From contig JBKQRV010000093.1 of NCBI GenBank assembly GCA_052143835.1, forward strand, positions 69,387 through 133,386: a stretch of DNA of 64,000 nt, given 5' to 3'. The notes below the pieces were generated by a model. It searched no databases. It had not been told where the DNA came from and worked only from the letters and a program-made list of their open reading frames with translations. Source of the stretch: Alphaproteobacteria bacterium. GTDB taxonomy: Bacteria; Pseudomonadota; Alphaproteobacteria; JACZXZ01. Below are positions 1,960-20,487 of the stretch, one piece after another. Numbering within the stretch: position 1 is the first letter of the stretch; every line of letters starts with the position of its first letter. The translations under genes and the position numbers were made by a program.

Positions 1960-2370
1960 GCCGCGAAAGACCCTCTCCTTGCGCGCATATTGACGGTCCG
2001 CTTGCGCTCTGCCAAGCTGCCCCGTTGGTCTGATGCGGGCGGCTCCTCGAAGGAAGACGGTCGGGCGGAAAGTCGACTTGAGGATGGACCGCGAGGCAAA
2101 TGCACGACGAGGCGCCGGCTTGGCAGCCGCAGCGCCCTCCAAGAACCATCGCTCCCCTCGCAATCTCCTCTGTTTCGGGCTCATGTGCATCTCGCCGGCA
2201 CTACGGTCCGTTTTACATGCTGCGAATCACGATCGCATCGTCTACCACGATAGTTGCCTGGCTAACTTACCGATGATGTTCGCGGTCGCGAAGAACATTA
2301 GGTGCGCCGGCATGCCCGACTTGCTCGGGGGATCGATGAACGGCCGACCAACCCCTTTGCGGAACTGACC

Positions 2371-5300
2371 ATGGACGGGACCGCTCGCCGATCTGACCGT
2401 TCCTGGCAGCTCGCACTGGCGATTCTCTACCTCGGATTCTACGCTTGGATGCTCGTCGCCGGCCACGGCATGCCATATGTCATGGATGCCAACGAGTCCT
2501 TCTCGATCTTCTGGCACGCTTATAATCTTTTTCATTTCAATATCGGAGACTCGCTGGGCATTACGGACGAGTCCTTCAGCCCGCACGCCGCGGCACATCC
2601 CTATCTTTACACCCACCAAGGCAATTTTCCGCGTCTTTTCGGCTTTCTGATCTATGTGCTCGGCGCGCGCACCATCCAATCCCAGGTGGTGGCAACCACG
2701 GCAATCGTCGGGACGGCGGCGCTCGTTCTCGCCTACCGCTATTTCGCACGGATCGCCGAGCCCCGCTTTGCCGTGATCTATTGCGCACTTCTGGCGACCG
2801 ACTACGTTCTCTATGGGCAGTGGCACGTTGTGACGGACCGCGTCTGGTCCGGGCTTTTCGTTTTCGCGCTCTTGAGCTGTCTGCACGATGCGGGGGGCGA
2901 GCGGCGGCGTCGAGCGCTCGCGTTCCTCTTCTTGATCGGAGCCGGTCTGTTCTACAACGAGCTGGCGTTCGCCGGAATGCTGTCGATTGCCGGCGCGCTT
3001 TACGCCGTCATGATGTTCTGGCGGCGCCCGGCGTTGGCGCTAAGCGCGATCGCGAGCTTTGTCGCAGGCGGGCTCTCGGCCTTGACAATCTTGTTCGCTC
3101 AGTTGAGCGCGCGCTTCGGCACCAGTGCCGTCTTGACGGATCTCTTCTATACCTTCGCCGCCCGCAACTTCGCCGACGACCCGGCCGGTCGCGAGGCTGT
3201 CCGCTCGTTCTTCGAGACGCACAAGATCGCCTTTTGGCCGCAATACGTCAACGGCGACCTCTATCGCAATCTCAAGGAATTCATTTTCTCCCTCAGCCAC
3301 TACGACCTGCAAGTCTACACGCCGATTTTCTGCCTGGTCACGGGGCTGTTGCTCGCGGGATGGGGTCTCGGGGCCGCCCGCACCAAATCTGCAATGCTCG
3401 AGCCGTCGGCGGAGCGCGTGCGGAACGACCCACCGCAGGCCCGATCGCCCGGACAGCGCGCGACCGACCTTGTTCTCCTCATTCATCTCGCGGGCGCGCT
3501 TTTTCTCGTCCTGCGGCCGATCGCGATTGGCGAGGGCGTGTTCGCGCTCTATCCGGCATCCGTTGCGCGTGGCGGTGCGCCGACGGGCCTTCACGTCTCG
3601 CCGGGAACGATCGTCGCCGCGCTGGCCGCGATCGCCGGCGCATTGTCGATCGTCAAGGCGAGCACTGGAAGCTGGTGGGCGACGACCCGGCTGTCGCCCT
3701 GGGCGGCGTTGAGGCTGTTGGCGCTCCTCATCGTGACGGGGGCCGCCCTGGGTTGGCAAAGACTGCTCTATCAGGGCGGCGGAGGGGGGGAACTCGCTGA
3801 CATCTGGATGGTTCCGCTAGCGGCACCCTGGGCGCGAACCGCAGCGCGTTTGGCCGTGGCAACCGCCCTCGTCGTGGCGATCTTCATGGCAATGGGCGGC
3901 GAACGCGCACTCATCGCACGCTCATGTAAAGACATCTTCGCGCGGATCGCACGCTTCGTCATCGCCGGGCTCGCCGGCTACGCCGTGGTCTATTGGCTAT
4001 CGCCGGGCATCGTCTTGAGCGGCTTTCAGTGGCGTTATGCACCCTTCGTCGTCTTTTTCCTTTGTGCGGTGCCGGCCTCGGCGTTCTATCTGCTTGTTCT
4101 CGCAACGGGGCGGCTGCGCGCCGTCTGGCATGAGGGGCATGCCGGCGAAACCGCGATGAGCCTTGCCGCGGCGGGCTTGCTGTTGGCAGGGCTCAGCTAT
4201 TGGGTCGGTCTGCAGCTGAGCTATGTGCGGCTCTTGCCGCCTGACCATGGCAGCTTCTTCCGGCGGCTCGCCGCCCCGCCTTTCCGCGGCCACAGCTTCG
4301 TCGCCAACAGCTACACCGCGCCGCTGACGGCTTTCACCGACGAGTGGGGGTACGCGGATACCGTGATCGGCAAGGGCGGCGTCGTGCTGACCTCGGAGGG
4401 CTATGTGCTTCATCGTGATATGCGCTCCTACCTCTGGTTCGCGGACCGGGGCCGCAATCCCGCCTATGCCTTCCCGGACTTTTATGCATGCTTCGTGCAG
4501 CAGAACCTCGCCAGCGCTGCGGCGCGACGCGTGGCGAAACAGCACGGCTGGCAACCCGCCGGGGGCTGTTCGACGTTGCCGCTCATTGCCGAGGCCGGCC
4601 GGCCGGGCGCGGTGCTGCGCAATGAGGTGGTCGCCCGCGATGCGCCGGATCGCGACTATTGGGCGGTGATCCGCCTCGATCCGGACTACCCGCCTTTCGT
4701 GCGCACGCTTGAAGCGGCGGTGCAAGCGGATGGAGCCGGCGGGCATCGGGTCGTCTACAGCGCCGCCGCCGGGCAGCAGCAGGGCAAGCCCTTAGTGTCC
4801 CCACTCGCCGAACTCGTGGCCATGCCAGGGGACAGCTCGTGCAAGCTCGATCCTAGGCACCTCGTGACGCTGGCCAAGAGCGAGGACGGCGCGCCGTTTC
4901 CCCTGCCGCCCGATTTCACAGGCACGCTCGCATTGCGCTACACGCCGCGCACGGCCACGCGAGCCGGCCAATCGGTGCTTTCGCGACCGTGGCGAGTGAC
5001 GCCGGCCGGAGCCGAGCCTTGCCCCTGGCCGACCGTCGATTACAGCTTCGCCGAGTCTGGCTCGTCGTCGACGTGGCTGTTGGACGGCTGGGGCGATCCC
5101 GAGCCCTGGGGTACTTGGACGGTCGGGCCGGCGGCGCGGCTCGTGCCGGATATTCACACGCTTCCCGACCACGGATTGGTGCTGACGATCATGGCTACAC
5201 CTTTCGTGACGCCGGTGCATCCCTCCGTCGAGGCTTCGCTCCAGGTCAACGGTGTGGCTGTCGGGCACCTGGTTTTTGCTCTCGGTCTTCCCGATCGGCC

Positions 5301-5925
5301 CCGCTCAGTTTTCGTTCCGAGGGCGGCATTGGAGCGCAATATGCCGCCCGAAGTACGTCTTGTCATAACGGATCCGGCATCGCCGCTGGCGCTCGGCATG
5401 TCTTCCGACGAAAGGCTGCTTGGGTTGGGACTGCGCCGGATGCAGTTGGCCGAGGGAGTGGAGCAGCCGGCAATGCTCGTCGAGCCGGGCGAGGATCTCG
5501 ATTTCTCGGCCGGCGGCCATGCCGTCGCGGCCCTGGGAGAGGGATGGATCGCGGCCGAGCCCAGGGGGAGCTGGAGCATTGGCCACACCGCGGACATCCG
5601 GTTCAGGCTCGCCCACCCGATCGGCGGCGATGCAGTGCTGCGGATCGTGGGCGCACCCCTCTTGGCCGCGCGCCGCACCACGGCCTCGGTCGACCTCGCT
5701 GTCAACGGCAGCGCCGTTGGCTCGATCCAGTATCGCCTCGGCGAACAGGAGAGCGAACGGGTTATCAAGATCCCCGGCGCGGCTTTGGCACAGTCGGCGC
5801 AATCGGTGGTCTCGCTTACCCTGCACATGTCCGACGCGAGATCGCCGAAGGAGCTCGGCCTTTCCGACGATCCGCGCCCTTTGGGGTTCTTCCTGCGCCG
5901 GCTGCGGCTCGATCCTGTGCAGTGA
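2371..5925 (+). CDS. Giant polytopic membrane protein (type B). It has an N-terminal domain of about 600 aa with 12 or more TM segments, a periplasmic-type soluble region, and two tandem GW-x2-PE-x-WG-x-W-x-G modules at the C-terminus.
   Basis: ORF 2302..5925. ATG at 2371 (MDGTARR) is preferred over the upstream alternative start. Hydrophobic helices run through about aa 640. The two module copies are GWGDPEPWGTWTVG...SPLALGMSSDERLLGLGL and GEGWIAAEPRGSWSIG...SPKELGLSDDPRPLGFFL. Confidence 0.75.
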   Translation: MDGTARRSDRSWQLALAILYLGFYAWMLVAGHGMPYVMDANESFSIFWHAYNLFHFNIGDSLGITDESFSPHAAAHPYLYTHQGNFPRLFGFLIYVLGARTIQSQVVATTAIVGTAALVLAYRYFARIAEPRFAVIYCALLATDYVLYGQWHVVTDRVWSGLFVFALLSCLHDAGGERRRRALAFLFLIGAGLFYNELAFAGMLSIAGALYAVMMFWRRPALALSAIASFVAGGLSALTILFAQLSARFGTSAVLTDLFYTFAARNFADDPAGREAVRSFFETHKIAFWPQYVNGDLYRNLKEFIFSLSHYDLQVYTPIFCLVTGLLLAGWGLGAARTKSAMLEPSAERVRNDPPQARSPGQRATDLVLLIHLAGALFLVLRPIAIGEGVFALYPASVARGGAPTGLHVSPGTIVAALAAIAGALSIVKASTGSWWATTRLSPWAALRLLALLIVTGAALGWQRLLYQGGGGGELADIWMVPLAAPWARTAARLAVATALVVAIFMAMGGERALIARSCKDIFARIARFVIAGLAGYAVVYWLSPGIVLSGFQWRYAPFVVFFLCAVPASAFYLLVLATGRLRAVWHEGHAGETAMSLAAAGLLLAGLSYWVGLQLSYVRLLPPDHGSFFRRLAAPPFRGHSFVANSYTAPLTAFTDEWGYADTVIGKGGVVLTSEGYVLHRDMRSYLWFADRGRNPAYAFPDFYACFVQQNLASAAARRVAKQHGWQPAGGCSTLPLIAEAGRPGAVLRNEVVARDAPDRDYWAVIRLDPDYPPFVRTLEAAVQADGAGGHRVVYSAAAGQQQGKPLVSPLAELVAMPGDSSCKLDPRHLVTLAKSEDGAPFPLPPDFTGTLALRYTPRTATRAGQSVLSRPWRVTPAGAEPCPWPTVDYSFAESGSSSTWLLDGWGDPEPWGTWTVGPAARLVPDIHTLPDHGLVLTIMATPFVTPVHPSVEASLQVNGVAVGHLVFALGLPDRPRSVFVPRAALERNMPPEVRLVITDPASPLALGMSSDERLLGLGLRRMQLAEGVEQPAMLVEPGEDLDFSAGGHAVAALGEGWIAAEPRGSWSIGHTADIRFRLAHPIGGDAVLRIVGAPLLAARRTTASVDLAVNGSAVGSIQYRLGEQESERVIKIPGAALAQSAQSVVSLTLHMSDARSPKELGLSDDPRPLGFFLRRLRLDPVQ

Positions 5926-6111
5926 GGGGCGGCAGTCGCATGTGAGCGGAAATCAATTACGTTGGGCTGGCGAGACGTTTCATGGTTCCCGCTCCAGTCC
6001 ATTGACGGGTCAGCTACCCTCTGCCAAGTTGGCTCGATCCGGTACAGGCGATTTTTATTTGGAGCGAGTTGCGATCGCGGGCGGGAGTATAGACGAGCGA
6101 CACTTGAGTTA

Positions 6112-8481
6112 ATGATGGCCCTGGAGTCACGCGCGCGACACATGTCCAGTGCGGCATTCGTGCCTTTTTCGGAAGTCCGTGCCGCTCGAGGCGATCCGTG
6201 GTGCTTCGGCCTCATGATCGGCGTCCTGGCGCTGTGGCTGATCGTCCACGGCCTATTTTGGGGGCGCCTCATTTACCATGACGCCTGGATGTACAACTTT
6301 CCAAAGATGCTCGGCATTTCGAAGGGCATGGCCTGCGCCGGCCTGCCGGAATGGCTCGGAAAAATCGACTCCGGAACGCCGGTCAGCATCTATACCACTA
6401 GCGACACCATTACCAATCCGCTCCGGCTTGCTCTGCTTTTCTTCATGAGCTGCTTGAAGCCGAGCGTTGAGGCCGCGGTCTATCTCCAAAAGGCGCATAT
6501 CTTCATTTTCTATCTGTGGCTGGCCTCAAGCATGTATGTGATGGGTCGCGTCCTGTTCCGGCACCAGTTGTCGGCCGTTTATCTCTTCGCGGCCACCCTC
6601 TTCGCCGGATTATGCATGCAGACCGCGCACTCCGACCAAGCGGCGGCCATTCTGTTCTGGTTGCCCTGGATCGTGATCTGCCTCGTGAAATTTCACCGCC
6701 AGAAAGCGGAGAGGCAAGCGCACTGGTACTTGAATGCCGCCGCCCTCTTCGTGGCGCTTCAATCGCTTGACCAATCCCCCCATTTTATCGTCTTTGCCGC
6801 CGGGCTCGCATTGATCCTCTACGCCGTGATGTGCCCGCAAGCGCTCCTAGCTGGACTGCGCCTGCACTGGTTGCGTCTCTGGCCCGCGGCATTCTTGCTG
6901 CTGCTGACCGCCGCCCATTTGCATTTCTTGCTGGGCGAAATCGCTGGCTATATTCCCTCTGTGCGACGCGGTTTGAACCTCGTCCCTTCCGAGATCGGCC
7001 AAAACGCGTTGGTCCAGCCGACGGCATTGATCGGTGCCGTCTTTCCGCTCAGCTTTACGGTCGCATACGATTCGCTGGAGTTCGGCCTCCGCACCTGGCT
7101 GGCGGGGATCGGCGTGTCGGGGGGGAGCCGATTCATCTATCGACTCGATGTGCTGATGTTCTTCGTAGGGATCGTCCCAGGCCTGTTGGCCACGGTCTTT
7201 CTCCTGCGCCCGGGCTGCGGGCGGTTGCGCGCCGGGTGGGGGCTGTTCGCGCTGCTCTGCCTGCTTGTGCCGATGCAGGACACCCGACTTTATCTGCTAC
7301 TGTTCCATCTTCCCTTCTTCAATTTGTTTCGCAGCTATCTGTTGCTTTTCCTCTTCGGCCTCTTCGCGGTGCTCGTGATGAGCGGTTTCGGCATGGATGC
7401 GCTGCTCACGCTCGCTTTCGCGGAGCGCCGCCGCTTGATCTGTCAAGCGCTTCTCCTTGGGGCCGTGCTAGCAGCGGACGCGGCGGTCGCATTCGGATGG
7501 CTGCTCTCGCTCCCGGACACTTACACCGCGCTGCCCCGCACGGCCGTGCTTGACATCCTGATTCTCTTGGCCGGCTTCGGCGCGCTGGCCTGGGGCGTCC
7601 TTCGCGCCGGCGATATCCATCGCGGGATGTTCGCGGTCGTTGTCGTGCTCGTGGCGTCGCAGGCCCTGTATCAAGTGGAAGTTTACCGCATCGTGGGCAT
7701 CCCCGTGGCGCAGGTCATCGACCTCTTTGGCCTCGACGCGGCGGATCGGACCCCGCTTCCGGCCGCCACCGTGCGCGACCCCAACGTGCTTACGCGCAAG
7801 CTTTGTGCGCGCTTCGCCGAATGTTATCTCTCGACTCATGACACGGCATCGCTCAACCGCGACCTGCAAGGCACGTTTCTGCGCAGCCGAGAGGAGGCCG
7901 TGTTCCAGCCCGGCCTCGCGCGCCCGGTGATCGAGGCGCTGAGCGCGGTCGGCCATCCCGTCTTCTGGACAAGCCGTGGTGCCGCTAGCTATGTCGATGC
8001 TGCCGAGCTTACCCGGCGGCTCAACGCCCAATCCTCGCGAATCGCCGAGCATCTGAGCGAGGTGGTCTACGTTCGTCCCGACGACCTCGAGCGGCTCGGG
8101 CCATTGCCGAGCAGGGCGAACGACGCCGTGCTGTCCGATCTCTCGCGCGGCATCGATTGGGTGCGCTTGTCCTATGGCGCTGCATCGCCTTTCTACCTGA
8201 ACGCCGCCATCGCTTACGATCCCCATTGGCGGGCGACGGTGGGAGGCAGGGCGGCGACCGTGGTGCGCGGCAACTTCGGCGGCCTCGTGCTCGCCGTGCC
8301 CGCCGGTTCCGGGGCCATCGAATTTCGCTACGTCAATCGCGCGAGCCAGCTTTTCTTCGCCTCGAGGATGATCATGGGCCTGGCAGGCCTCGCCGCTGCG
8401 GCCTGGCTTGTCTTCGCACGGTACGAGCGTCGCCTGGCCGAGGGAGGGCGGGTCGAAAACCGAGGCGGCGGCGGCGCATGA
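6112..8481 (+). CDS. YfhO-like polytopic membrane protein (type C, about 790 aa), a putative GT-C-type glycosyltransferase.
   Basis: ORF 5962..8481, with ATG at 6112 (MMALESR). It has more than 12 predicted TM helices. The C-terminal YDPHWRATVGGRAATVVRGNFGGLVLAVPAGSGAIEFRY is followed by a terminal TM helix (MIMGLAGLAAAAWLVF). This matches the YfhO-family C-terminal signature as I remember it. Confidence 0.6.
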   Translation: MMALESRARHMSSAAFVPFSEVRAARGDPWCFGLMIGVLALWLIVHGLFWGRLIYHDAWMYNFPKMLGISKGMACAGLPEWLGKIDSGTPVSIYTTSDTITNPLRLALLFFMSCLKPSVEAAVYLQKAHIFIFYLWLASSMYVMGRVLFRHQLSAVYLFAATLFAGLCMQTAHSDQAAAILFWLPWIVICLVKFHRQKAERQAHWYLNAAALFVALQSLDQSPHFIVFAAGLALILYAVMCPQALLAGLRLHWLRLWPAAFLLLLTAAHLHFLLGEIAGYIPSVRRGLNLVPSEIGQNALVQPTALIGAVFPLSFTVAYDSLEFGLRTWLAGIGVSGGSRFIYRLDVLMFFVGIVPGLLATVFLLRPGCGRLRAGWGLFALLCLLVPMQDTRLYLLLFHLPFFNLFRSYLLLFLFGLFAVLVMSGFGMDALLTLAFAERRRLICQALLLGAVLAADAAVAFGWLLSLPDTYTALPRTAVLDILILLAGFGALAWGVLRAGDIHRGMFAVVVVLVASQALYQVEVYRIVGIPVAQVIDLFGLDAADRTPLPAATVRDPNVLTRKLCARFAECYLSTHDTASLNRDLQGTFLRSREEAVFQPGLARPVIEALSAVGHPVFWTSRGAASYVDAAELTRRLNAQSSRIAEHLSEVVYVRPDDLERLGPLPSRANDAVLSDLSRGIDWVRLSYGAASPFYLNAAIAYDPHWRATVGGRAATVVRGNFGGLVLAVPAGSGAIEFRYVNRASQLFFASRMIMGLAGLAAAAWLVFARYERRLAEGGRVENRGGGGA

Positions 8482-8489
8482 CGGCGCTT

Positions 8490-8640
8490 GGCCATCCTCC
8501 GGAGCCGGGCCGGCAGGTGGGGCCGACGCTTCTTTTGTCGGCCAATACCCCTGGCTCCTCGTTGCCGGCCAGGACATGCCCCGCGTCATGGGCGGCGATG
8601 AATTCTCCTCGATCCTTTGGCATGCTCACCGCGCGGCGCG
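8490..8640 (+). pseudogene. Degenerate remnant of the N-terminus of a type-B paralog.
   Basis: Translating ORF 8408..8791 gives YPWLLVAGQDMPRVMGGDEFSSILWHAH. This parallels the type-B N-terminus YAWMLVAGHGMPYVMDANESFSIFWHAY at 2440-2530. The fragment is frame-broken and has no following gene body. Confidence 0.5.
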
Positions 8641-8996
8641 GACGCGTGCGAATGCCTCGGATTTGATCGAGATGCCGCAGTTCGAGTATGGACGAGCGAT
8701 TTCGGCAAGCGTAAAAGAGCGCCGGCAATCTCCTTACCCGATTTGCAGCGGCTGGACGAGAGGGTACGACATGGACGACCAAGAGGCATGAGGATAGTGG
8801 GCGCATCGAGCCTGAGCGGCGATCCTCCAATGACGAGCCAATTCAGCGCTGGGCGTCTTTGTTGTCCATGATTTTGCCAGGCCCAATCTCGGCCCTTCAA
8901 CGCATCATGAGAGGACTGCGTGCGCCTTGGCCGGCGATCGGCGGTCGGTTGCCGAGCGTGGCATCGGCATCGCCTCGGTCGTTGGCGTGGGACCGC

Positions 8997-11900
8997 ATGG
9001 ACGTGGCCGCGCTCTTTGCCCTCGGCGCCCTTGTCGCATGGTGGTTCTGGCCGCATCTCAGTGGGCGCGCGGTCTTCATCGGCGATTCGGACCGCATGAA
9101 TCACTTCCTGACGTGGCTCCGGAATTTCACGAACGGGCTGCGGCACGGCTATATCCCGACCTGGAACGAGTCCCTGTTCGGCGGCTACAGCGTCGTCGCA
9201 TTGCCCTATACCTATCCCAATCTCTTTGCCGCCCTCGCGGCCCTCTGGCCCGAGCGCCTGCTGATCGTCGTGGCGGGATGGATTTCCGCCCTCTTGATGG
9301 TGCTGGCGGGGTGGGCCGGCTACGCCTTCGTGCGCGACGTGACGCGGGAGCGCCTGACGGCCTTCACCGCGGCCGTGCTCTATCAGTCCTCCGCACTCGC
9401 GACCCTCAAGGTCAGCCAGAACGACATGAGCTTCGCGGTGCTGATCATCATTCCGTTGGTCATGTTGATCCTGCGCCGCGTGCGGCCCGGCAACATGGCG
9501 CCGTGCTTCGTCGGCCTGGCCTTGCTGCTGACCCATCTCTTGACGGTGGATTTCTTACAGAAAGCCGCTTACGCCTGCATGCTGTTCGGCCTTTATTCCA
9601 TCTACCGGCTGGTGAGCACCGGCAGTTGGCGTACGCCGTTCGTCCTCGTCAGCGCCGCAGTGGTCGCCGCCGTCGCCTCTTTCCCTCGCATCATGACGGA
9701 CGGCATCGAGCTCTCCCATTCGATCCGGCGCTACATCGGCGGTCAATCGGACAACCTGGACAGCGTCTATACCTCCATCGGACGCCATTTCAATTTCGAG
9801 ATTCTGCGCGCATTCGACGAGCGCATTCTTGGACGCACTTTCGCCGAATCCTACAGCTTCGGAAATATCTTCAATTTGCACGAGGGACTCCTCGTCTATT
9901 CGTCGACCTTCGCCACGCTTCTGATCCTGTGCGGAACGGTGCGGTATCTGCCCGCGCTGCTGCGTGGACGCCGCCTCATCGACGAAGATGCGCCGTTCCA
10001 CCTCGCCTTCGTCGCGTTCTGCGTGTTCGTGGTGCTGAGCAAGCTCGGCTTCACGATCATGTATGTGCTCATGGATCGCATCGACTTCATCCATGCCCGC
10101 ATCCTCGTCGCGGCCATGCTGCCTCTTGCCACGCTCGCAGCAGCGTATCTCTATCACTTGGGGGGCGGGAGCCACCTCGAGAAGCCGATCCTGCCGCGCT
10201 GGCCCCAGCTCCTCGCGGCGGCGCTCGCAGCTGGGCTCCTGGTGGCAGGCAGCGAGCATGTCGCCGATGCCACCGCCGGCCGGCCGATCCCGCTCGGCAT
10301 CTCGGAGGGCTTCACCGCGAACCTCACGGTATCGGCCGGCTCCGTGCTTCGGGTCGGCTTTTCGCTCTTCCTCTTCGCCGCGGTGCTCGCGGCGTCTCTG
10401 GGTCTCGACCGGCGCTCGCCTTGGCGCGGACCGTTGATGGCATTCCTCGCCTTCCTCATGATCTTCCAGGCCGCCGCCTTCGGAGCCTTTCAGCTTCGCG
10501 GTGACCAATTGCGCAGCGATTGGCGGCCGCTGCGGGAGCCGGCGGGCGAGACCAAAAAGCCGGAAAGCGAGCCAATGCCTTTCAAGGAGGCCGGACGCCT
10601 TCTCGCCCGAGCCGATGAGTTCAAAGGACCGACAGAGGCGGCGCTCTCGGCCATCGATCGCCGTCTCGAGCGCGACGATTACCGCACGGCCATTGTCTGC
10701 GATCCCAGCCGGATCAAGATCTTCTGCTCGCCGCACATCGCGAACTTTTGGCGCTTGCGCATGATCGAGGGCTATATCAGCTCGATCCCGGAGCGGCTCG
10801 AAATCCTGCCATGGCCCGCCAATTCGCTGAGCCAACGCTCGATCAGCTTCCCGAGCTTCGCCTCTCTGCCTTGGCCCCTGCTGAGCCTGTTGAATGTCAA
10901 ATATGCGATTGCCGTTCAGCCGGCCTTGTTTACCAACGCCGTAAGGCTGCCCGACGGCACGAGCCGCGAGCTCCGGCCCGAGGATCTCGAGATCCGGCAG
11001 AGCCCGCTTCCGGTGACGCCGAGGGTCTTCTTCGCGTCAACCGTTCAATCGCTTGCCGGGCCCGAGGCCGTGCTCGAGGCGCTTTTCCCGAAGGGCCAGC
11101 TGCGTCCCGAGGGTTACGACGCAGGGCGGCTAAGCTATGTGGAAGACGCCATTGGCGGGAGCTATAGCACGGCGGGTCAGGAGGACCTCAAGGCCTCGTT
11201 CCGCGACCAATACGCGACGATCGAATTTCCGCCTGCCGTGGCCCCGCGCTTTCTCGTCGTCAACGAGCGCTTCGACCCCTATTGGCGCGCCTATATCGGC
11301 GGCAAGGCAGCGAGGATCTATCCGACCAACCTCGTGATGCGCGGCGTCGTCGTCCCGCCCGGCGCGCGCGAGGTGACTATGATCTATCGGCCCTACGATA
11401 CTTCGGGCCGCGCCTTGGCCTTCTATCTCGCGGGCTTCGTTCTGTTCGGATTCGGATGTTGGGCCGTCGGCCGGACAGATCGACGGTTCCCCTCATTGAG
11501 CGCGGCGGAGATGGCGCGGCCTATGCGGCGCGCCGCGAGTTGGCTCCGGACGCGGTTAAGTGCATGGATTGCAGGCGATGCACCGGCGCTATTCCGGAGC
11601 TTGATCGCGATATCGATAATCTGGGCGATGGTCGTGGCCCTCAAATACCACCACGAGCCCAAGCTTCTGCTCATCGCCGTCGCTTGTCCGCTCGCCGGTC
11701 TCCTGCTTGTGCGGCTCGATTTGCGATTGGGGTGGCGGGCGGCCGCTTCGGCCGACCGGCTGGGCACCATCGCCGCCTTCGTCTTCATGCTGGCAATCTG
11801 GTCGGCCAGCCTCGTGCTGTGGAGGCGGGCCGGCGGCTTCTTCGGCGTTCGCGACACGGGCGAATCCGCGGCGATTTTCCTCTCGAGTCACCACGTCAGG

Positions 11901-13745
11901 GACATCGTGTCCTTCTTCTTGCAGGACCACGCGGCAAGTTCGGATCCGGCGGCGCTGGGCTACTTTTATATTCATCACCCCAATTTCATTTCGCGGCTTC
12001 TTTCCATGATCGGCATCGCATTGGGAATGTCGCAGGAGACGCTCATCCTCGCCTGCCTCATGCTTTCGGCGCTTTCGCTTCTGCTGGGCTTTCTCGCACT
12101 CCGCAGACTTTTCGCACCGCTTGTCGCGCTTGCGACTGTCGGATTCTTTGCAACCTCATATGGGGTCTATTTCGCCCAAGCCGGCGACCTGCTGCGCGGA
12201 CTGCATGTCGTGATGCTATGGCTGCTTGTCTACCTGATGGCGCTCGAATGGGATGGGCCGCCCGAGCGCCGGCACGGCCGCGATATCGCGCTCGCGGTAC
12301 TGTTCGTATTCATCGCCTCCTCGGATTGGGCATTCTTTGTCTTCTGTCTCGTTTTCTATTCAATGTGGAACGTTTACGCGCGCCGCCGCGTCGACGTGCG
12401 GCACCTCTTCGCTTGGGTCCTCGTGCCCTCTGCGCTGACGTTCCTCGCGTATTTTTGCATTATCGTCGCGCACACCGGCCTCGAGTTCTTCGTGACCGAC
12501 CTGCTGGTCACGTATTTCGGACGGATGGGCAACGTTTTCTTGGGAGCAATTTTGGGGGAGGCCCCGGACGTCAAGAAATTCCTCGAGTTGTATCAGGCGA
12601 AGCACATCGTCATGTGGGACGTGAGCCCGACGCCCGTTCGCTTGCGCGATGTCGTCACCGCTTACTGGCAGGTCATGCTCGCGGGCAGCCCATGGGTTGC
12701 GCGCGTCTTGTTCGCCACATTCATCGCCTGCTGTGGCGCGACGCTGCTGCGCGTCACGAAGGTCCGCGTGGCACGGGTCGTCGCGCTCGGTATGATCGCG
12801 GCGCTCGCGTTTGGCTTGGCGTTCTCTACGCTGGTCCCGATCCTGATTCTCTATCTGCTGATCGGTTTGCCGGGACTGAGGGCTGAGGAGCCGGCTTCTT
12901 CCGGCGCTGAGCAGAGCCGTCCGGGTCGGCTCGTGTCCGACTTGGCCGCATGGGTCACGATCCTGCTGAGCGCGTCGAGCGTGGTTGGCTTCCTGTTCCC
13001 CAACTACGTCTCCTGGCTTTGGAGCCAAGGAGCATCTCCCGTCGGCTTGCCGGACGCCGCGGCGTTTGGCCTCATTTGCCACCTCCTGGTCTATGCGCGC
13101 AGCTACGCCCGGGACGCGCGCTGGCTGCAGTCGCGCGCGGCCGAGGCAAAGGCGGCGCTGACACGCCTTGCCGCCGTTCTGTCGCTCTCGGCGCAAGCGA
13201 GCACAGGGCGCCGCAGCGTCGACCAAGGCGGGAAGCCACTCGCCACAAGTGATCATTCATGGCGTTTCCGCCCTTGGGGTGGCCCCGCGGCGGTTGCCGT
13301 CATCGCGGCTCTCCATATTTTCAGCAACTTCCAGCTTTACCGGCAATTCCCCCCTCTAGGGCCGCCCTTTGCATCGGCGCTGCGTCGGCCGGAATTTCAC
13401 GGCAAGCTCTTTGTCGCCAACGTGTATGATGGGCTGGTATGGTACTTCACGCGGGGCACCAGCCTCATCACCACCGTCGTGCCGCCTGAGCGCGGGAGCA
13501 CAGAGCGCTTCAGACATTTGCGGGATGGGGATGACCAGGCCAAATACGCGCATCCGGATTACTTCCTTTGCGACAACGATCCCTACTTCGCTTTCGTCCG
13601 CGTCGCGAGAATCGGCGGCAAGACCTGCCAGATGCCGGCCGAGTGCAGCTGCGGGGACGTATTGCATGAGATGGCCAAGCAGGGACACACGGCCGTTGTC
13701 GTCGCACCCAACTACGTGATCATGAAGTACAATTACGTTCATTGA
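8997..13745 (+). CDS. Fusion protein (type D, about 1580 aa). The N-terminal half is a YfhO-like domain that includes the YfhO C-terminal signature and its terminal helix. The C-terminal half is a type-B-like membrane domain plus soluble region without GW modules.
   Basis: ORF 8859..13745. ATG at 8997 (MDVAALF) is preferred. The mid-protein RFDPYWRAYIGGKAARIYPTNLVMRGVVVPPGAREVTMIYRPY plus the helix AFYLAGFVLFGFGCWAV matches the type-C C-terminus. The distal region (PEFHGKLFVANVYDG...YAHPDYFLCDNDPYFAF) aligns with type B (PPFRGHSFVANSYTA...PAYAFPDFYACFVQQN). Confidence 0.7.
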   Translation: MDVAALFALGALVAWWFWPHLSGRAVFIGDSDRMNHFLTWLRNFTNGLRHGYIPTWNESLFGGYSVVALPYTYPNLFAALAALWPERLLIVVAGWISALLMVLAGWAGYAFVRDVTRERLTAFTAAVLYQSSALATLKVSQNDMSFAVLIIIPLVMLILRRVRPGNMAPCFVGLALLLTHLLTVDFLQKAAYACMLFGLYSIYRLVSTGSWRTPFVLVSAAVVAAVASFPRIMTDGIELSHSIRRYIGGQSDNLDSVYTSIGRHFNFEILRAFDERILGRTFAESYSFGNIFNLHEGLLVYSSTFATLLILCGTVRYLPALLRGRRLIDEDAPFHLAFVAFCVFVVLSKLGFTIMYVLMDRIDFIHARILVAAMLPLATLAAAYLYHLGGGSHLEKPILPRWPQLLAAALAAGLLVAGSEHVADATAGRPIPLGISEGFTANLTVSAGSVLRVGFSLFLFAAVLAASLGLDRRSPWRGPLMAFLAFLMIFQAAAFGAFQLRGDQLRSDWRPLREPAGETKKPESEPMPFKEAGRLLARADEFKGPTEAALSAIDRRLERDDYRTAIVCDPSRIKIFCSPHIANFWRLRMIEGYISSIPERLEILPWPANSLSQRSISFPSFASLPWPLLSLLNVKYAIAVQPALFTNAVRLPDGTSRELRPEDLEIRQSPLPVTPRVFFASTVQSLAGPEAVLEALFPKGQLRPEGYDAGRLSYVEDAIGGSYSTAGQEDLKASFRDQYATIEFPPAVAPRFLVVNERFDPYWRAYIGGKAARIYPTNLVMRGVVVPPGAREVTMIYRPYDTSGRALAFYLAGFVLFGFGCWAVGRTDRRFPSLSAAEMARPMRRAASWLRTRLSAWIAGDAPALFRSLIAISIIWAMVVALKYHHEPKLLLIAVACPLAGLLLVRLDLRLGWRAAASADRLGTIAAFVFMLAIWSASLVLWRRAGGFFGVRDTGESAAIFLSSHHVRDIVSFFLQDHAASSDPAALGYFYIHHPNFISRLLSMIGIALGMSQETLILACLMLSALSLLLGFLALRRLFAPLVALATVGFFATSYGVYFAQAGDLLRGLHVVMLWLLVYLMALEWDGPPERRHGRDIALAVLFVFIASSDWAFFVFCLVFYSMWNVYARRRVDVRHLFAWVLVPSALTFLAYFCIIVAHTGLEFFVTDLLVTYFGRMGNVFLGAILGEAPDVKKFLELYQAKHIVMWDVSPTPVRLRDVVTAYWQVMLAGSPWVARVLFATFIACCGATLLRVTKVRVARVVALGMIAALAFGLAFSTLVPILILYLLIGLPGLRAEEPASSGAEQSRPGRLVSDLAAWVTILLSASSVVGFLFPNYVSWLWSQGASPVGLPDAAAFGLICHLLVYARSYARDARWLQSRAAEAKAALTRLAAVLSLSAQASTGRRSVDQGGKPLATSDHSWRFRPWGGPAAVAVIAALHIFSNFQLYRQFPPLGPPFASALRRPEFHGKLFVANVYDGLVWYFTRGTSLITTVVPPERGSTERFRHLRDGDDQAKYAHPDYFLCDNDPYFAFVRVARIGGKTCQMPAECSCGDVLHEMAKQGHTAVVVAPNYVIMKYNYVH

Positions 13746-13803
13746 GAGGCACCGCGCGGCGTCGGGCGCGCAGCACGGCCTCGCTCGGACCCAAACCTTG
13801 GCA

Positions 13804-16800
13804 ATGCAACGGCTCGGCATGGGAAAGCGGATTGCGGGTTTCGCGGGTGCGCTTGCATCGCGCGGATGGGCCTTTGCGCCGGCACTTCTGCTGGTGCTTG
13901 CCTTCAACCTCTATTGGTACGGCGCTTTTCTATCGTTCCCCGTGTTCGGGGAAGATGCGGCGTCGCTGTTGTACGTTCTGCTCGACACGATCAAGGGCGG
14001 CCACCTGGCAACCATAGGCTATCCGATGAATTGGTCGGAAGGCCTGGGACAGCCGAATCTCTTCATAACCTTCACCTTCGACCCTTTCGCTTGGGTGATG
14101 CTCCTGCCGCTCGACCCGGCCGATTGCTATCGCATTTCGATGGCGCTTCGTGCCACGGCAGCCTGGGCAGCGGGTTATTGGTTCTGCATCGTGTTGTTTC
14201 GCGGCCGGCCCATGGTCGCGATGTTCTCTGCGACGCTGTACATCCTGATCGGCTTCATTCTTACGAGCGCATGGGGCACCTATATCTGGGCCGGCATGTT
14301 CAATGCGACGCACGCGGCAATTTTTCCGCTTCTGGGAGCCTTTGCTCTCTTGATCATGCGGAGCCCGCGCCGCATAGGCATCGCGGACCTCTGTTTTCTT
14401 GTCTCGGTATTCTTCTTCATCCTCGATTATCCGGTCGGATCTCTGATCGGCATAGCCGTGTTCCTGACTTTCGCCGGCGCCGCAGCGCTTCTGGCACGCC
14501 CAGCCGAGCGCCGGACCGCAATTTGGGGATTCGCCAAAATCGCAGCAATGGTCGCTATCCTCCTTTTTGCTCCGCCGCTTCACATTTTCTCGTCGTGGAC
14601 GGCGCTCATACAGGGATCGGCGCGAGTGGTGTTTTCCGGCGAGCTGTTTGCATACGGCAACAGTCATGTGCCGCCGCTCATGTGGACGCGATCGCCCTGG
14701 GCTCTCAGAGTGTGCATCCTGGTCGGTTTGTCGGTGTTATTGCTCAACCGGCGTTGGCCGCGCCCGCTCCGAGTGCTTGCTGCCACCCTCTTCCTGGTGG
14801 TTGGCGGAGTGCAGCTCTTGGCACTTGTGAAGTATCTCGGGCTTGACGCTGGGCTCGTGGACCGTCTTCCGCGACTTCACTATTTCGAATTCTACTCGCC
14901 GCTTTTTTATGCTGCATGCGGGGGCTTCGCGTTGAGTCACTGGCGGGATGTCGCCTTTCCGGGCCTCGCTGATCGGCGGCATCTGCACGCGTGGACGTTA
15001 CGGACGATCATGTTCCTGGCAATCGCGCTCTACATCCTGCCGACGATCGTCGTTGTCGTTTCCGGCATTCTTCTGATCGTCGCGCACGCCTGGCTGCGCC
15101 GGGAGAGAAAAGGTGTTCGCAGCGTGGTGTCGCCGGTGGGGGGTCGTCTTGTTGCCCGTGCCGTTTTTGTGGCGCTCATCGCCGCCGCGATCGGAACTTG
15201 GCTGCCTCCCAGTGAGAAGATCTATCCTATCTTCTACGCCGAGAGCCGCTGCCGAGACGGCGTGCTTTGGTGCCGCGACCCGCCGGGCGCCACGATGGCT
15301 GTCGGCGACAATCCGATTACGCAGTACTTGCGGCGGGCCTTGAGCGCGGATGAGCATTTCTCCGGGCGCGCCGAGACTTGGGTCAGGCCGCCCGTCCGGA
15401 TCGGCCTTTATGCGCAAGTGGACATGCGGTGGACGGACGAGCTGTTCGCGCGCCTTCATGCATGGTACGCGCGGGCTTACGAAGCTCAAGTCATAAAGGG
15501 CTCGTCGGAGGACGATCTCTTCCGGCTTCCGCCGCAGCGAGTCGATTGGGACCGCCGCCAGTATCTGCTGGACACCCTTGCGAAATTCGCCCGCGGCGAC
15601 CTTCCGTATAACGGCCCGGCCCAGGAGAACCTGGTGCTCGAGATGCGCGACTGGATCGTCAGGCGCGGCCAGATGTTCGGCTTATTCGTAAAGGACTTCA
15701 CCGATCCGTGGCAGGGCATTAACTCCGTCCAGGCCGTCACCGAGGAACGTACGGCTGCGTTTTTCGCCACGGGAAATGGCCTCTTGCTACGAGCAATGCC
15801 GTTTCAGGGCGTTCCTGTCGCGTCGTCCTACGAGCAGGCGCTCGACTATCTTTATTATCTCTTCTGGACTCGGTATGTCAGCGCCGGTCAAGCAGCGTTC
15901 AAATCCATCAACATGACCACTTTGGAGGCACTTCATCCGGACCGCCTTGCGCTTGCGGGAATACGCTTTGTCGTGGCCCGCGACAGCAGCGCTTACGAAG
16001 CTCCTCCCCTCGAGCGGATCATGAGCTGGCAAGGGTATTCGATCTATGCGGTGCGGCATGCGAACGTCGCAGGCTACGCGGTAAAGAATCTCGAGTTCGG
16101 CAATACGCTGACCGAGGAATTGCGCCTGATGCGCCACCATGGTTTCGATCCCCGGCGTACCGCCGTACTTCCGGCGCGCGCGCGCCGTTCGTTTGCGGAC
16201 TCTACATTCCACGCGCCGGGGATGCTGGCGAGTTCATCCATCAGGTTGGCGCCAAACGAATTGACCTACTTGGCGAGGGGTTCCGGCGGTCCCGTTTTTG
16301 TCGTGCTGCCGTTTAACTGGTCGCATTGCTGGCAAGTGGAGTGGCGCAGGGGAACCGGAAATCTCACCCGCGCCGACATCGATCTGGTGGGAGTCGCCTT
16401 CGAGGGCGACGTCGAGCTGCATCTGCGTTGGACCGCCGGCTATGGCGCGCGTAGCCAGTGTCTCGGCGAGGATCAGACGCAGATCCCCGAGGCAAAGCGC
16501 GCGGCGGCCGCGGTCGGATTCGGCCAGGCCTATGAGCCGCTCGATCGGGATTTTCAACCCTTCGCCGCCGCGCGGCCTCGCTTTGCCGCCGACGCAGTCG
16601 ATGAGCGCGAGTTAGAAAGGAGATCCGATTACAGTAGCGGCAACGAAATGGTGGTGCCGAGCAGCGTGGTGGCGCTGCTGTCGAACGACGAGCTCTATGG
16701 GGGGGCGTGGACGACGTCGGTTTCCTCGGAATTCCGCCGGGACAACGGGGAGTACGAGCTCGTTGCCACGAACGACGGGGGTGCAAGCCTCGCGGTCTTG

Positions 16801-17472
16801 CCATTGCGGCATTCTTACTGTTGGCAGGCGGAATGGCGGGGCAAGGCCGGCGCCCTCCTCCCGGTCGACGCGGACCGGCTTAGCGTGCTGTTTCGCGGAT
16901 CCACATCGGTGCGGCTTCTCCTTCCGCCCGCGGACGAGCGCTCGAGCTGTGCGCTGCGCGACCGCGCGCGCGCGGCGGTTTTTGATTTTCTCGCGAACGA
17001 CCCTGTCAAGTCCGACGCGGCTCGCTACCGTCTCGGCGAGGCCATCGCCTTCGGCAGCGGGGGAAACAGCGAGTCCTTCACGGTGGAGGGATGGGGGCAG
17101 CCGGAAGCCTGGGGCCGATGGTCGCTTGGCTCGACCGCCAAGCTCGTGTTGAGAACGAATCCGCCGCCGACCGGTGATCTGATACTCGACGCATCGGTCG
17201 GTGCTCTACTCGCCGGAAGCCGGCGATTCGCGCGTGCGACGATCGTCGTCAACGGCGTCGAGGTCGGCAAGTGGGAGTTTCGTCCCGAGGATACGCCCGG
17301 GCGCCGTCAGGCAACCGTGCCGCGGGATTTGGTGGCGGATATCGGAGTGATGGTAATCGATTTCAAGGTCGACGAGCCCGTCTCGCCCGCCGAGCTCGCA
17401 GTGTCGCTCGATACTCGGCGCCTTGGCCTCAGTCTGCAAAGACTCACTGTGAGAGCCGCCGACAGCTATTAG
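13804..17472 (+). CDS. Giant membrane protein (type A, about 1220 aa). It has an N-terminal polytopic domain of about 450 aa, a large soluble region with two YfhO-C-like repeats, and one C-terminal GW-PE-WG module.
   Basis: ORF 13798..17472 has TTG at 13798 and ATG at 13804. It is paralogous to 20488..24156 over its full length and to 1..1959. The module is GWGQPEAWGRWSLG...SPAELAVSLDTRRLGLSL. Confidence 0.75.
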   Translation: MQRLGMGKRIAGFAGALASRGWAFAPALLLVLAFNLYWYGAFLSFPVFGEDAASLLYVLLDTIKGGHLATIGYPMNWSEGLGQPNLFITFTFDPFAWVMLLPLDPADCYRISMALRATAAWAAGYWFCIVLFRGRPMVAMFSATLYILIGFILTSAWGTYIWAGMFNATHAAIFPLLGAFALLIMRSPRRIGIADLCFLVSVFFFILDYPVGSLIGIAVFLTFAGAAALLARPAERRTAIWGFAKIAAMVAILLFAPPLHIFSSWTALIQGSARVVFSGELFAYGNSHVPPLMWTRSPWALRVCILVGLSVLLLNRRWPRPLRVLAATLFLVVGGVQLLALVKYLGLDAGLVDRLPRLHYFEFYSPLFYAACGGFALSHWRDVAFPGLADRRHLHAWTLRTIMFLAIALYILPTIVVVVSGILLIVAHAWLRRERKGVRSVVSPVGGRLVARAVFVALIAAAIGTWLPPSEKIYPIFYAESRCRDGVLWCRDPPGATMAVGDNPITQYLRRALSADEHFSGRAETWVRPPVRIGLYAQVDMRWTDELFARLHAWYARAYEAQVIKGSSEDDLFRLPPQRVDWDRRQYLLDTLAKFARGDLPYNGPAQENLVLEMRDWIVRRGQMFGLFVKDFTDPWQGINSVQAVTEERTAAFFATGNGLLLRAMPFQGVPVASSYEQALDYLYYLFWTRYVSAGQAAFKSINMTTLEALHPDRLALAGIRFVVARDSSAYEAPPLERIMSWQGYSIYAVRHANVAGYAVKNLEFGNTLTEELRLMRHHGFDPRRTAVLPARARRSFADSTFHAPGMLASSSIRLAPNELTYLARGSGGPVFVVLPFNWSHCWQVEWRRGTGNLTRADIDLVGVAFEGDVELHLRWTAGYGARSQCLGEDQTQIPEAKRAAAAVGFGQAYEPLDRDFQPFAAARPRFAADAVDERELERRSDYSSGNEMVVPSSVVALLSNDELYGGAWTTSVSSEFRRDNGEYELVATNDGGASLAVLPLRHSYCWQAEWRGKAGALLPVDADRLSVLFRGSTSVRLLLPPADERSSCALRDRARAAVFDFLANDPVKSDAARYRLGEAIAFGSGGNSESFTVEGWGQPEAWGRWSLGSTAKLVLRTNPPPTGDLILDASVGALLAGSRRFARATIVVNGVEVGKWEFRPEDTPGRRQATVPRDLVADIGVMVIDFKVDEPVSPAELAVSLDTRRLGLSLQRLTVRAADSY

Positions 17473-17561
17473 AGTATTTTCATAATTGCTGGCGATAACC
17501 GGCGTTGGCGGGATGCTCGGCGCATTCGGCGGAAGACAATCGCATTTCTAACGCGGCTTGT

Positions 17562-18356
17562 TCACCAGCTGCGCGATAATCGCCGAGCGAGAATTCGGAA
17601 AAGGCTGTGGCCGACCGATACGAAATTGCGTAGGCGCAAAGCCTTCGACCCTGGCGACGCGGTCGCTGGCAGGACGAGCTCTTTGTAGCTAGCTCCTTCT
17701 CCCACCAGACGTGTAATGAGCTCGGCCTGGAATCCGAATCCGGTCGACTCGACGGCAAAGCGCATCACCTGCCACCGTCGGTAGGCGGGAAATCCGTTGT
17801 AGTACTCGATCCTGATCCCCGAGATCTTATTGACAAGCCAGGTGTATAGGCGGGACAGGCCCTTACGGAGCACGCCGCGCCCGCGCACGTCGCGATAGAC
17901 GGGGATGATGATGTCTGCCTCGCCAAGACTGCGCATGATTGCGTCATGCGCCTCGGGCAACTCGTAGTTATCCCCGGCGACCGCACGGTAGTACGTGCCC
18001 TTCCCAAGGAACGCGCAGTCGGTGAAGTTGCGGCCGAGACCGCGATTTCGGGGCAGCGTAATTAGTCGTATGTTCAGCTCGGGATGCCTCCCTTGGTAGG
18101 TGCGGACGACCTCGCTAGTCCGGTCTGTTGAACAATCGTCGAAGACGATCACCTCGATTGTCGTGCCGGTGCGCCGCGATGCGGAAAAGACGTTCTCAAG
18201 GGCATTGACCACATGCCCCTCCTCATTGAGGCACGGCATGAAGACGGTCAGCTCGATGGGCCACTCGCCCCCCAAGGCCTCTTCGAGAATCCGATCCACC
18301 TCGAGTCCTCTCTCCCAGCCACCTGCAAGAGACGCCTCACGCGGCCTATGTCGCAC
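17562..18356 (-). CDS. Family 2 glycosyltransferase of the DPM1/ArnC/CsbB-like polyprenyl-phosphate sugar synthase type.
   Basis: IELTVFMPCLNEEGHVVNALENV...VIVFDDCSTDRTSEVV is a GT2 A-type fold with a DxD-like FDD motif. The likely start is GTG at 18356. Confidence 0.7.
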   Translation of the reverse strand: MRHRPREASLAGGWERGLEVDRILEEALGGEWPIELTVFMPCLNEEGHVVNALENVFSASRRTGTTIEVIVFDDCSTDRTSEVVRTYQGRHPELNIRLITLPRNRGLGRNFTDCAFLGKGTYYRAVAGDNYELPEAHDAIMRSLGEADIIIPVYRDVRGRGVLRKGLSRLYTWLVNKISGIRIEYYNGFPAYRRWQVMRFAVESTGFGFQAELITRLVGEGASYKELVLPATASPGSKALRLRNFVSVGHSLFRILARRLSRSW

Positions 18357-18480
18357 GGGTAAGACGCGGTCGTGGCCGTCGTCGTCCCGGACAGATGAAG
18401 TTCGCGTGAGGACGCTGATATCGGATCAGTCACATGCGCCGCTGCAGGCTCCGATGCGACCTTGCCTTCGCTGTATTCGG

Positions 18481-19470: not shown

Positions 19471-20487
19471 TGAGTTCTTCCTTTCAGAAATGTGTAGGGA
19501 ACGTTCGACCCGCTGTAGGGCGGCTAAGCTAAGAGAATCCCCCTTCCTTGTAAATAGGACCGGACCGCGGATAAAGGCGTCGGCTTCCCCCGCCCAGCGA
19601 TGGGGCGGCGAAAAGCCGTGCTCCTAGCTTCGCACGCGTCTCAAATCGTCGATCTGGCTGGTTGTGCCCGCCAGATCACATGCTCGCGAAGAGGCTGCTA
19701 CGCGGGGCGCCACCTCGCAAACCGCACAGCAGCTCAACTGCATATGGCGGCGCGCAGAAGACGGAGCTGATATGCCGAAATCTGCGCCCCCGCGACACGA
19801 CTCCGATCCGAGGCTTTTCGGCGCTTGCGGGCCTTTCGCGGGTCGCCTTTCTAGCGAAACGGGGCATGGTTGGTAAGTTGCTTGATTTACCGAGAAGATC
19901 GGGTATTCAGGTGCGCAATGCCTCAGAACTTCAAAAGCCGCCCCGACCGTTCGGGCAGGCGGGTGCGGGCAGGCAAGTGCCAATGCCCGTATATCTCGTT
20001 GACCGGTTCAGGCGATGGAACTATAGATTGAGGTCACTTCACAGAAAAGTAAGTCGCGGCGGGATATCGTGGTACAGAATGATCCGGCCCAAGGCGCGGA
20101 GCACGTAACTCCGCGACGCCTCGCCCGCAACCTCGACCCTCTGGCATCACTTGCGGCCGCCGGAGGGGCACTCTTACAATCTTCCGGCCATGCGGCGCAT
20201 CCTGGGACAGAAGGGCGTTGTAACGCCGCTCGCGGTCGGTCATCTGGGCCACAAATTCCATCGGTGCCGTCCGGAGCCGCAGTTCGCGCGCGGCGCGTCG
20301 GCGGCGTGAGGCGGGTCGCGCTGGCCCGGCAACCTATCCCACCCCAGGGGGGCTCGCTCGGCCGTCTGGGCCGCCGCGGCCGATCCGAGAGCCGTCGCCC
20401 CCGGTATCTGCGCGCACTTCCGCGCGACTTGGCCTTGTTCCTGCGAGTCTGCGCATGAGCGAGCCGTTAGCGTAGCTGAACCAGGCC

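Follow-up and report, generated by a model that had tools for sequence, protein, structure and literature searches.

Multi-component transmembrane glycosylation, in which a glycosyltransferase (GT) of the GT-A type makes a C55-P-sugar, GtrA flips it and a GT-C enzyme (YfhO) transfers the sugar outside the membrane, has been described (PMC8035078, PMC5836110), and in Bacillus, Staphylococcus and Listeria YfhO fills the GT-C role of the CsbB-GtcA-YfhO systems (PMC5836110, PMC8035078). Extracytoplasmic side-chain glycosylation of polysaccharides exported by ATP-binding cassette (ABC) transporters is known for streptococcal rhamnopolysaccharides (PMC11754754). The subject of this analysis is gene F, which lies in a stretch of 64,000 nucleotides (nt) of alphaproteobacterial DNA (contig JBKQRV010000093.1, positions 69,387 to 133,386), referred to below as the window, and belongs to a same-strand array of very large membrane-protein genes designated A, B, C, F, G and H. 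The structural and evolutionary evidence makes it likely that F joins two different, complete glycosyltransferases of the GT-C fold in an established fusion that selection maintains.

GT-C enzymes frequently act as pairs or with partner subunits. Pairs include the yeast Pmt1-Pmt2 heterodimer (6p2r) and mycobacterial EmbA-EmbB (7bvf), with the embCAB operon, while GT-C accessory subunits with unequal roles are found in oligosaccharyltransferase (OST) and glycosylphosphatidylinositol transamidase (GPI-T). A limited literature search turned up no account of an enzyme in which two GT-C proteins are fused, and no paper on DUF7024, a domain to which other proteins of the array are related.

Composition of gene F

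The open reading frame (ORF) of gene F is uninterrupted over 8859-13745. A sequence-only reading of this DNA had described a gene at 8997..13745 that joins two units; two complete units are indeed present in one ORF, but the start codon had to be moved. The methionine encoded at 8868 (MILPGPISALQRIM) and the next 43 residues are kept in six of six orthologs, whereas the methionine at 8997 is replaced by V (L003), I (L001) or A (L004, L005 and L006) in the orthologous loci. Because the former is conserved and the latter is not, the start was placed at 8868 and gene F was defined as 8868-13745, with a predicted product of about 178 kDa. A database search with F identified full-length relatives with 92% identity (P0001, 1598 amino acids (aa)) and 71% identity (P0002, 1639 aa). 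Between the window and L003, nucleotide identity in F is 95.0/96.9/90.1% at the three codon positions, a substitution pattern that indicates purifying selection on F. The F proteins encoded by L002 and L003 are identical.

A transmembrane (TM) scan, counted from 8868, placed the terminal TM helix of the first unit (module 1) at residues 849-867 and the first TM helix of the second unit (module 2) at residues 907-925, with an Arg-rich linker between them. Standalone YfhO-like proteins of 890-995 aa align with ORF residues ~46-880 alone and end there, and the junction alignment showed that they terminate 5-15 aa past the terminal helix. A search with the distal part of F recovered standalone proteins of 706-771 aa that are 52-67% identical and cover 95-100% of module 2. 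The modules therefore meet at about 11469-11585 according to both the standalone alignments and the TM scan, in agreement with the boundary near 11400-11500 expected from the earlier reading. Each part of F is found elsewhere as a separate full-length protein, and independent sequences read through the junction in frame, which is the pattern of a gene fusion of the 'Rosetta stone' type.

The linker (LSAAEMARPMRRAASWLRT.RLSAWIAGD) is kept at the protein level across orthologs and aligns with the N-terminal tails of standalone module-2 paralogs (MTAAAKLGRPL...W...RAAAWLNDD). Since it still aligns with these tails, the fusion is proposed to have arisen once, when the stop and the start between two adjacent genes were lost. 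The methionines within the linker vary among the orthologs in the junction alignment, and no conserved internal start was found there. By the positive-inside rule, the linker would put the C-terminal end of module 1 and the N-terminal end of module 2 on the cytoplasmic side, and therefore the fusion would require no additional helix.

Module 1 has the YfhO C-terminal motif and, after it, a terminal TM helix, as previously noted, with a match to positions 788-826 of the 835 positions of the Pfam YfhO profile. Ten of the 13 members of the module 1 alignment match Pfam YfhO (best E 4.8e-13), and standalone homologs (P0008-P0016) are 36-48% identical over residues ~46-880; module 1 is homologous over its full length to proteins that match the YfhO model. 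The standalone homologs adjoin GT2 and GtrA-like genes. The AlphaFold model of module 1 (predicted local distance difference test score (pLDDT) 80.7, predicted template modeling score (pTM) 0.84) comprises a bundle of helices, a domain rich in beta structure and a final helix and resembles AftD and AftA, so that the predicted structure has a GT-C fold, a large C-terminal domain outside the cytoplasm and a TM helix at its end. A profile search of the module 1 family against PDB sequences gave no matches.

The predicted structure of module 2 has the GT-C transmembrane fold and resembles ArnT, ALG12 and PMT (PDB 5f15, 9e61 and 9s6t) at a sequence identity of 8-12%. The fold matches obtained in the analysis also include PIGU, GAB1, Pmt1, Pmt2 and EmbA. 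Searches with both the module 2 sequence and its family profile found no sequence match in Pfam, NCBIfam or PDB. A profile search of 1.84 billion cluster representatives delimited a family of 157 proteins at E<=1e-3, 32 of them at E<=1e-30, and the strong full-length matches were standalone proteins of 660-820 aa. Matches to module 2 in the C-terminal half of a protein were found solely in the F cluster (P0003, and the partial P0004 and P0006).

Conserved acidic residues are present in the loops of both modules. In module 1, the first periplasmic loop contains an invariant D within IG(D/N)xDR (IGDSDR in the window), in fused and standalone members alike. In module 2, the first-loop motif D/E-x-G-E-S is found in 13 of 14 members and LQ(D/E) in all, and the D of the S/P-D motif and the HHPN motif are invariant in fused and standalone members. 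This conservation argues against the alternative that one of the modules is catalytically dead, serving as a scaffold or binding the acceptor, and that F performs one glycosyl transfer rather than two, as does the existence of standalone versions of both families, which presumably act alone. Heteromeric GT-C assemblies with unequal roles are nevertheless known, PIGU and GAB1 are among the fold matches, and the module-2 family has no recognised Pfam signature. On balance a dead module is considered rather unlikely.

Age and integrity of the fusion

The integrity of the junction was examined by tblastn, in which single in-frame segments crossing it were scored. The junction lies in one frame in the window and in seven further loci, with junction-spanning identities to the window of 92% in L002 and L003 (two Joint Genome Institute (JGI) samples), 71% in L001 (European Nucleotide Archive (ENA) ERZ25039587), 70% in L004 (a 1.9-Mb contig of ERZ25039491), 65% in L005 and 63% in L006 (both ERZ25039587), and 64% in L014 (Alphaproteobacteria metagenome-assembled genome (MAG) SMAG_U12173, on a k141-named contig). 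These loci come from no fewer than four samples, and their assemblies include Flye-style as well as k141-named ones.

Array genes are frame-broken in several related long-read-style assemblies, which gives some substance to the idea that the long ORF is an assembly or sequencing artefact, with a frameshift or missed stop near 11400-11500 that falsely merges two genes. L005 (~9455-9486) and L006 (~9990-9998) have a common 1-nt insertion (GACGTTCGAGCG) that breaks F at residue ~754, within module 1; L004 has a different break in F at residue ~333 (9972-9989); and the B and C genes are frame-broken in L001. All four of these loci are on Flye-style contigs, and the breaks may be long-read indel errors, possibly systematic, or real decay. 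However, none of the observed frame breaks is at the junction, the junction is in frame in independent samples and with different assemblers, and the linker is conserved at the protein level. An artefact is therefore extremely improbable, and the false merger that the earlier reading had named as its refutation is not what the relatives contain. The same reading had asked for unfused versions in relatives. In every ortholog found the junction is in frame, and apparent splits lie elsewhere: P0019, P0020 and P0007 were considered as unfused F orthologs and rejected, the split in L005 and L006 being at residue ~754.

The sequence-only reading further derived F from its neighbors, proposing that a B-C pair was recently duplicated in tandem and partly deleted, leaving a B remnant, and that the C and B copies (C' and B') fused. 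The local order B, C, b', F on which it drew is real, b' being the remnant described in the next section, and so is a relationship between module 2 and B. Judged by sequence, module 2 is a true but remote homolog of the membrane domain of B (hhalign probability 98.4%, E 5e-15, 23% identity over 279 columns), relative to which it carries two extra N-terminal TM helices, and blastp aligned it with the soluble part of B at 27.5% over 149 aa. The description of the second unit as B-like but devoid of GW modules thus held for the modules, since a domain scan found two of these DUF7024-like ('GW') modules in B and none in F, but the kinship with B is only remote. Module 1 and C have the YfhO-type C-terminal motif in common. 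The first unit is not, however, the complete type-C unit it was taken for: hhalign aligned module 1 with the last 78 columns of the C family only (probability 81%, E 1.3e-5), blastp gave 33% over 51 aa, and neither detected homology over the whole unit. By hhalign, the G/H family had no significant relation to module 1 or to C.

At the DNA level, blastn of 2371-8481 against 8482-13745 was compared with a background of 20 shuffles (maximum 33.7 bits). The only match above chance was between 2440-2520 and 8546-8626 (72.8% over 81 nt, 48 bits), that is, between B and the remnant upstream of F; F itself has no DNA similarity to B or C above the shuffles. The alignment of 2371-8481 with 8490-13745 that had been suggested as a check therefore recovered the remnant, while for F it left only remote protein similarity. 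A recent paralogy of module 2 and B is not supported, because no DNA match exceeds the shuffles and the standalone members (52-67%) are far closer.

The same fusion is found in arrays with the orders A-C-B-F-G-H (L001, L005, L006 and L013) and A-B-B-F-G-H (L004). These relatives are 64-76% identical to the window and do not have the B-C-b' arrangement. Because they contain the same junction in other gene orders, the fusion is older than the rearrangement of B and C and independent of it. With F no more similar to B and C in DNA than chance, with protein identities of 23-33% in partial regions only, and with standalone homologs (40-67%) closer to each module than B or C, an origin of F by recent duplication of the B-C pair is very improbable. 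From these comparisons, the fusion is a single, clade-specific and established event that is not recent, and the fused architecture is limited to one ortholog cluster from uncultured soil Alphaproteobacteria.

Remnants and turnover of the B and C genes

Upstream of F, the sequence-only reading had noticed a frame-broken fragment resembling the B N-terminus at 8490..8640, and this was borne out. The fragment YPWLLVAGQDMPRVMGGDEFSSILWHAH at 8546-8629 matches positions 20-52 of the B-family hidden Markov model (HMM) with 26.9 bits (E 5e-11). The ATG of b' at 8478 overlaps the TGA of C (8479-8481) as ATGA, in the same way as at the C/B junction of L006, and b' opens with MTAL... where the B protein of L006 opens with MTSTAL.... 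The frame of this ATG differs from the frame of the similarity, with a frameshift near codons 15-22; apart from this shift, b' stays in register with B over codons 1 to ~52. Compared with L003, b' is 82% identical in nucleotides without codon-position bias, whereas the flanking genes are 93-94% identical, and in L003 a further deletion of 27 nt has removed nine codons that are the best-conserved ones, including YPWLLV. For these reasons b' is taken to evolve as non-coding DNA.

A B gene directly precedes F in L001, L004, L005, L006 and L013 and is intact except in L001, where it is frame-broken. The gap between the C stop and the F start is 386 nt in the window, and its part downstream of b' is similar in length to the 180-252 nt that separate the B stop from the F ATG in relatives; the DNA of this spacer is not alignable to the B-F spacers of distant relatives, and the 3' end point of the deletion could therefore not be located. 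With its similarity to B, broken frame, relaxed constraint and syntenic B genes in relatives, b' has the features of a pseudogene remnant, and it would be all that a deletion of ~3.4 kilobases (kb) left of the B copy usually found ahead of F. Assignment of b' to one B paralog was attempted and abandoned, since a hand count gave uninformative identities of 16-18 of 28 to all B copies. Scanned for promoters and terminators, the segment 8300-9100 gave no signal above chance.

A second remnant, c', not mentioned in the sequence-only reading, lies directly upstream of B. Its residues 21-109 match positions 4-92 of the C-family HMM (63.7 bits, E 4e-22), and its stop codon is 2 nt before the ATG of B, the same spacing as at the C/B junction of L005. 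The c' product is 54% identical to the N-terminus of the L006 C protein and 36% identical to that of the window C; it agrees with the L006 C alone at 15 sites and with the window C alone at 3 (binomial p 0.0075). Because it is closer to the L006 C, c' is not a recent copy of the window C. In L003, c' is open and of equal length, with 6/3/12 substitutions at codon positions 1/2/3, which weakly suggests that it may still be translated.

The intact frame of c' with an ATG, its equal length in L003, the codon-position skew and the placement of its stop, which has the geometry of translational coupling, could also be read as signs that b' and c' are small ORFs with a function of their own, for example as leader peptides or small membrane proteins, and not the debris of pseudogenes. 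However, the frame of b' is shifted, its substitutions show no codon-position bias and its nine best-conserved codons are missing in L003, c' has lost family-invariant residues (YHDAW has become YHDSC, and DSGTP has become NGRPTP), and the skew in c' is based on 21 substitutions. A function of both as small ORFs is thus unlikely, and we regard them as truncated remains of B-type and C-type genes.

The order in the window lineage is A-c'-B-C-b'-F. The simplest history, we infer, would start from an ancestral A-C-B-C-B-F array, in which the C-B pair occurred twice; deletions would then have removed the greater part of the first C and of the last B, without involvement of F. Duplicated B copies in the array can be old, because B1 and B2 of L004 are only 57% identical. 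The B and C genes have undergone birth-and-death turnover, and the rearrangement involved B and C copies only; to this extent, given the b' stub and the differing orders in relatives, the earlier reading was right to see rearranged B and C genes in the array. The spacer between B and C (5926-6111) is among the least conserved segments relative to L003 (86%, with a 2-nt indel), and under the two-pair model it would be a junction made by the duplication.

Copy number and domain content also vary elsewhere in the array. B has two DUF7024-like modules in the window, L003 and L004 (1176-1184 aa) and one in L005 (3843-6935), L006 (4457-7543) and L013 (1117-4530) (1028-1030 aa). In L003 (11855-12069), F is followed directly by an H-like gene with 95.7% nucleotide identity to window positions 20530-20669, and in L002 (7627-15169) the order is F, G, H; since these two loci have identical F proteins and different downstream genes, the G/H content varies between close strains. 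G is 70% identical between the window and L002, where F is 92% identical. A, G and H are paralogs with 55-59% identity and a DUF7024-like C-terminus. Pfam and NCBIfam searches with the six array proteins gave only weak DUF7024 and YfhO matches.

Standalone module-2 paralogs and C paralogs are found a few kb upstream in the genomes of relatives. There, the region upstream of A (L007:4438-10175, L008:4422-10316 and L009:4583-10316) contains a methyltransferase gene, a C paralog (756-764 aa), a second methyltransferase gene and a standalone module-2 paralog (724-771 aa), and the full array would therefore comprise about 10 GT-C-like modules. The window begins inside A, so this block lies outside it.

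The coordinates of the features are collected in Table 1. The window has a G+C content of 62-70%. Between G and H is a 3-kb insert (17473-20487) of lower G+C content (~59-60%) with opposite-strand GT2 and epimerase genes, and G and H adjoin in L001, L002, L004, L005 and L006. No NCBIfam model names the GT2 of the insert (17562-18356) as a polyprenyl-phosphate transferase. Just past H, a 592-aa ORF on the minus strand (24401-26179) had no Pfam or NCBIfam match. The window further encodes a methyltransferase, two GT4 enzymes and another GT2. For annotation, it follows that the start of F should be corrected to 8868, and that 8478-8632 should be entered as a pseudogene fragment and 2033-2368 as a truncated C-type ORF.

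Table 1. Features of the window around gene F and their coordinates.
Feature	Position	Strand	Description	Basis
Gene A	1-1959	+	partial, cut by the window edge	paralog of G, H
c'	2033..2368	+	intact ORF of 111 codons with the remains of a C-type N-terminus (similarity 2093-2359)	HMM
Gene B	2371..5925	+	1184 aa; GT-C-like membrane domain, soluble region, two DUF7024-like modules	
Gene C	6112..8481 (ORF opens 5962)	+	~790 aa from conserved MMALES start; YfhO-type C-terminal motif	
b'	8478..8632	+	decayed remainder of a B-type gene, N-terminal codons 1 to ~52	HMM, DNA match, synteny
Spacer, b' to F start	8633..8867	+	235 nt	90% identical to L003
Gene F	8868..13745	+	fused dual GT-C protein (predicted), 1625 aa	uninterrupted ORF, orthologs
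Module 1	8868..11468	+	YfhO-like GT-C glycosyltransferase (predicted): TM bundle, ~300-aa periplasmic beta-rich domain, terminal TM helix	
Fusion linker	11469..11585	+	39 aa, 8 K/R, predicted cytoplasmic	TM scan, junction alignment
Module 2	11586..13745	+	ArnT/PMT-like GT-C glycosyltransferase (predicted), small C-terminal soluble domain, no DUF7024	
Gene G	13798..17472	+	1224 aa, DUF7024 C-terminus	paralog of H, A
GT2	17562-18356	-		
Sugar dehydratase/epimerase	18481-19470	-	NAD-dependent	
Gene H	20488-24156	+		paralog of G, A
ABC ATPase	30946-32265	-	Wzt-type, with Wzt_C domain	

Proposed function and comparison with known systems

In the proposed mechanism, the short cytoplasmic tail of the YfhO-like module of F would lead into the N-terminus of the ArnT/PMT-like module, and the catalytic loops of both would face the periplasm. 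It would use polyprenyl-phosphate-sugar donors and add two sugars, or two kinds of decoration, and its acceptor would be an ABC-exported glycopolymer made by the surrounding cluster (Wzt ATPase, GT2, GT4, methyltransferase and epimerase). The addition of periplasmic sugars to such a polymer is proposed from the genes of this cluster and from standalone module-1 homologs, whose gene neighborhoods have the layout of multi-component glycosylation systems. The fusion would enforce 1:1 co-assembly of the two modules, as the non-covalent pairs Pmt1-Pmt2 and EmbA-EmbB do, and the defined stoichiometry suggested in the sequence-only reading is plausible as a hypothesis. Taken by itself, this functional mechanism is held with about equal measures of confidence and doubt, in contrast to the structural and evolutionary claims.

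Several points weigh against parts of this interpretation. The donor, the acceptor and the activities of the modules are read from fold and genomic context only. Among the window genes scanned, there was no GtrA-type flippase and no clear polyprenyl-phosphate GT2. Module 1 of the window scores 16.5 bits against Pfam YfhO (PF09586), below the gathering score of 28.5. If the frame breaks of F in L004, L005 and L006 are real decay, they could weaken the case for selective maintenance in those loci. As for the history of the array, the A-C-B-C-B-F intermediate occurs in none of the genomes found, and the assignment of b' to a paralog is weak because the remnants are short.

A more speculative extension, offered tentatively and thought doubtful in its full form, is that F may be an obligate covalent 'heterodimer' whose modules are packed as in Pmt1-Pmt2 or EmbA-EmbB and add two successive sugars processively in the periplasm. 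The GT-C-like giants of the array, which number at least six and up to ten, might then serve as a combinatorial toolkit, and gain and loss of its genes (b', c' and the variable G) would make a surface glycan differ from strain to strain.

A fusion such as F, which is natural and conserved and joins two different GT-C families in a single chain, provides a case for studying the cooperation of such enzymes. It also provides a 'Rosetta stone' link, by which the unannotated module-2 family probably acts together with YfhO-like enzymes on the same substrate. Furthermore, the stubs and the differing gene orders show that whole genes are gained and lost as the array evolves, as would be expected for a surface structure that varies among strains.

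In comparison with known systems, module 2 differs from ArnT/PMT/ALG-type GT-C enzymes in its sequence, which is only 8-12% identical to theirs and has no Pfam or PDB sequence match, and in a small, family-specific, Cys-containing C-terminal domain. Like the systems for side-chain glycosylation of ABC-exported polysaccharides and for Gtr O-antigen modification, the window encodes a Wzt-type ABC ATPase, GT2, GT4 and predicted GT-C enzymes; it differs from them in having no identified GtrA or demonstrated polyprenyl-phosphate GT2, and in having far more GT-C-like genes. Module 1 is like YfhO (PF09586) in its predicted polytopic GT-C bundle, large extracytoplasmic C-terminal domain and terminal TM helix, in the YfhO C-terminal motif, and in having 40-48% identical homologs that match Pfam YfhO and adjoin GT2 and GtrA-like genes. 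Unlike YfhO, its sequence in the window falls under the Pfam gathering score, its hosts are Gram-negative (alphaproteobacterial MAGs), it is joined to a second GT-C module, and the array that contains F encodes six or more very large, paralogous membrane proteins. With Pmt1-Pmt2, EmbA-EmbB and embCAB, the locus shares the fixed pairing of two GT-C enzymes and the tandem arrangement of paralogous GT-C genes among genes for a glycopolymer, as far as the predicted structures and gene context indicate; in contrast to Pmt1-Pmt2 and EmbA-EmbB, the partners in F are covalently fused and come from different GT-C families.

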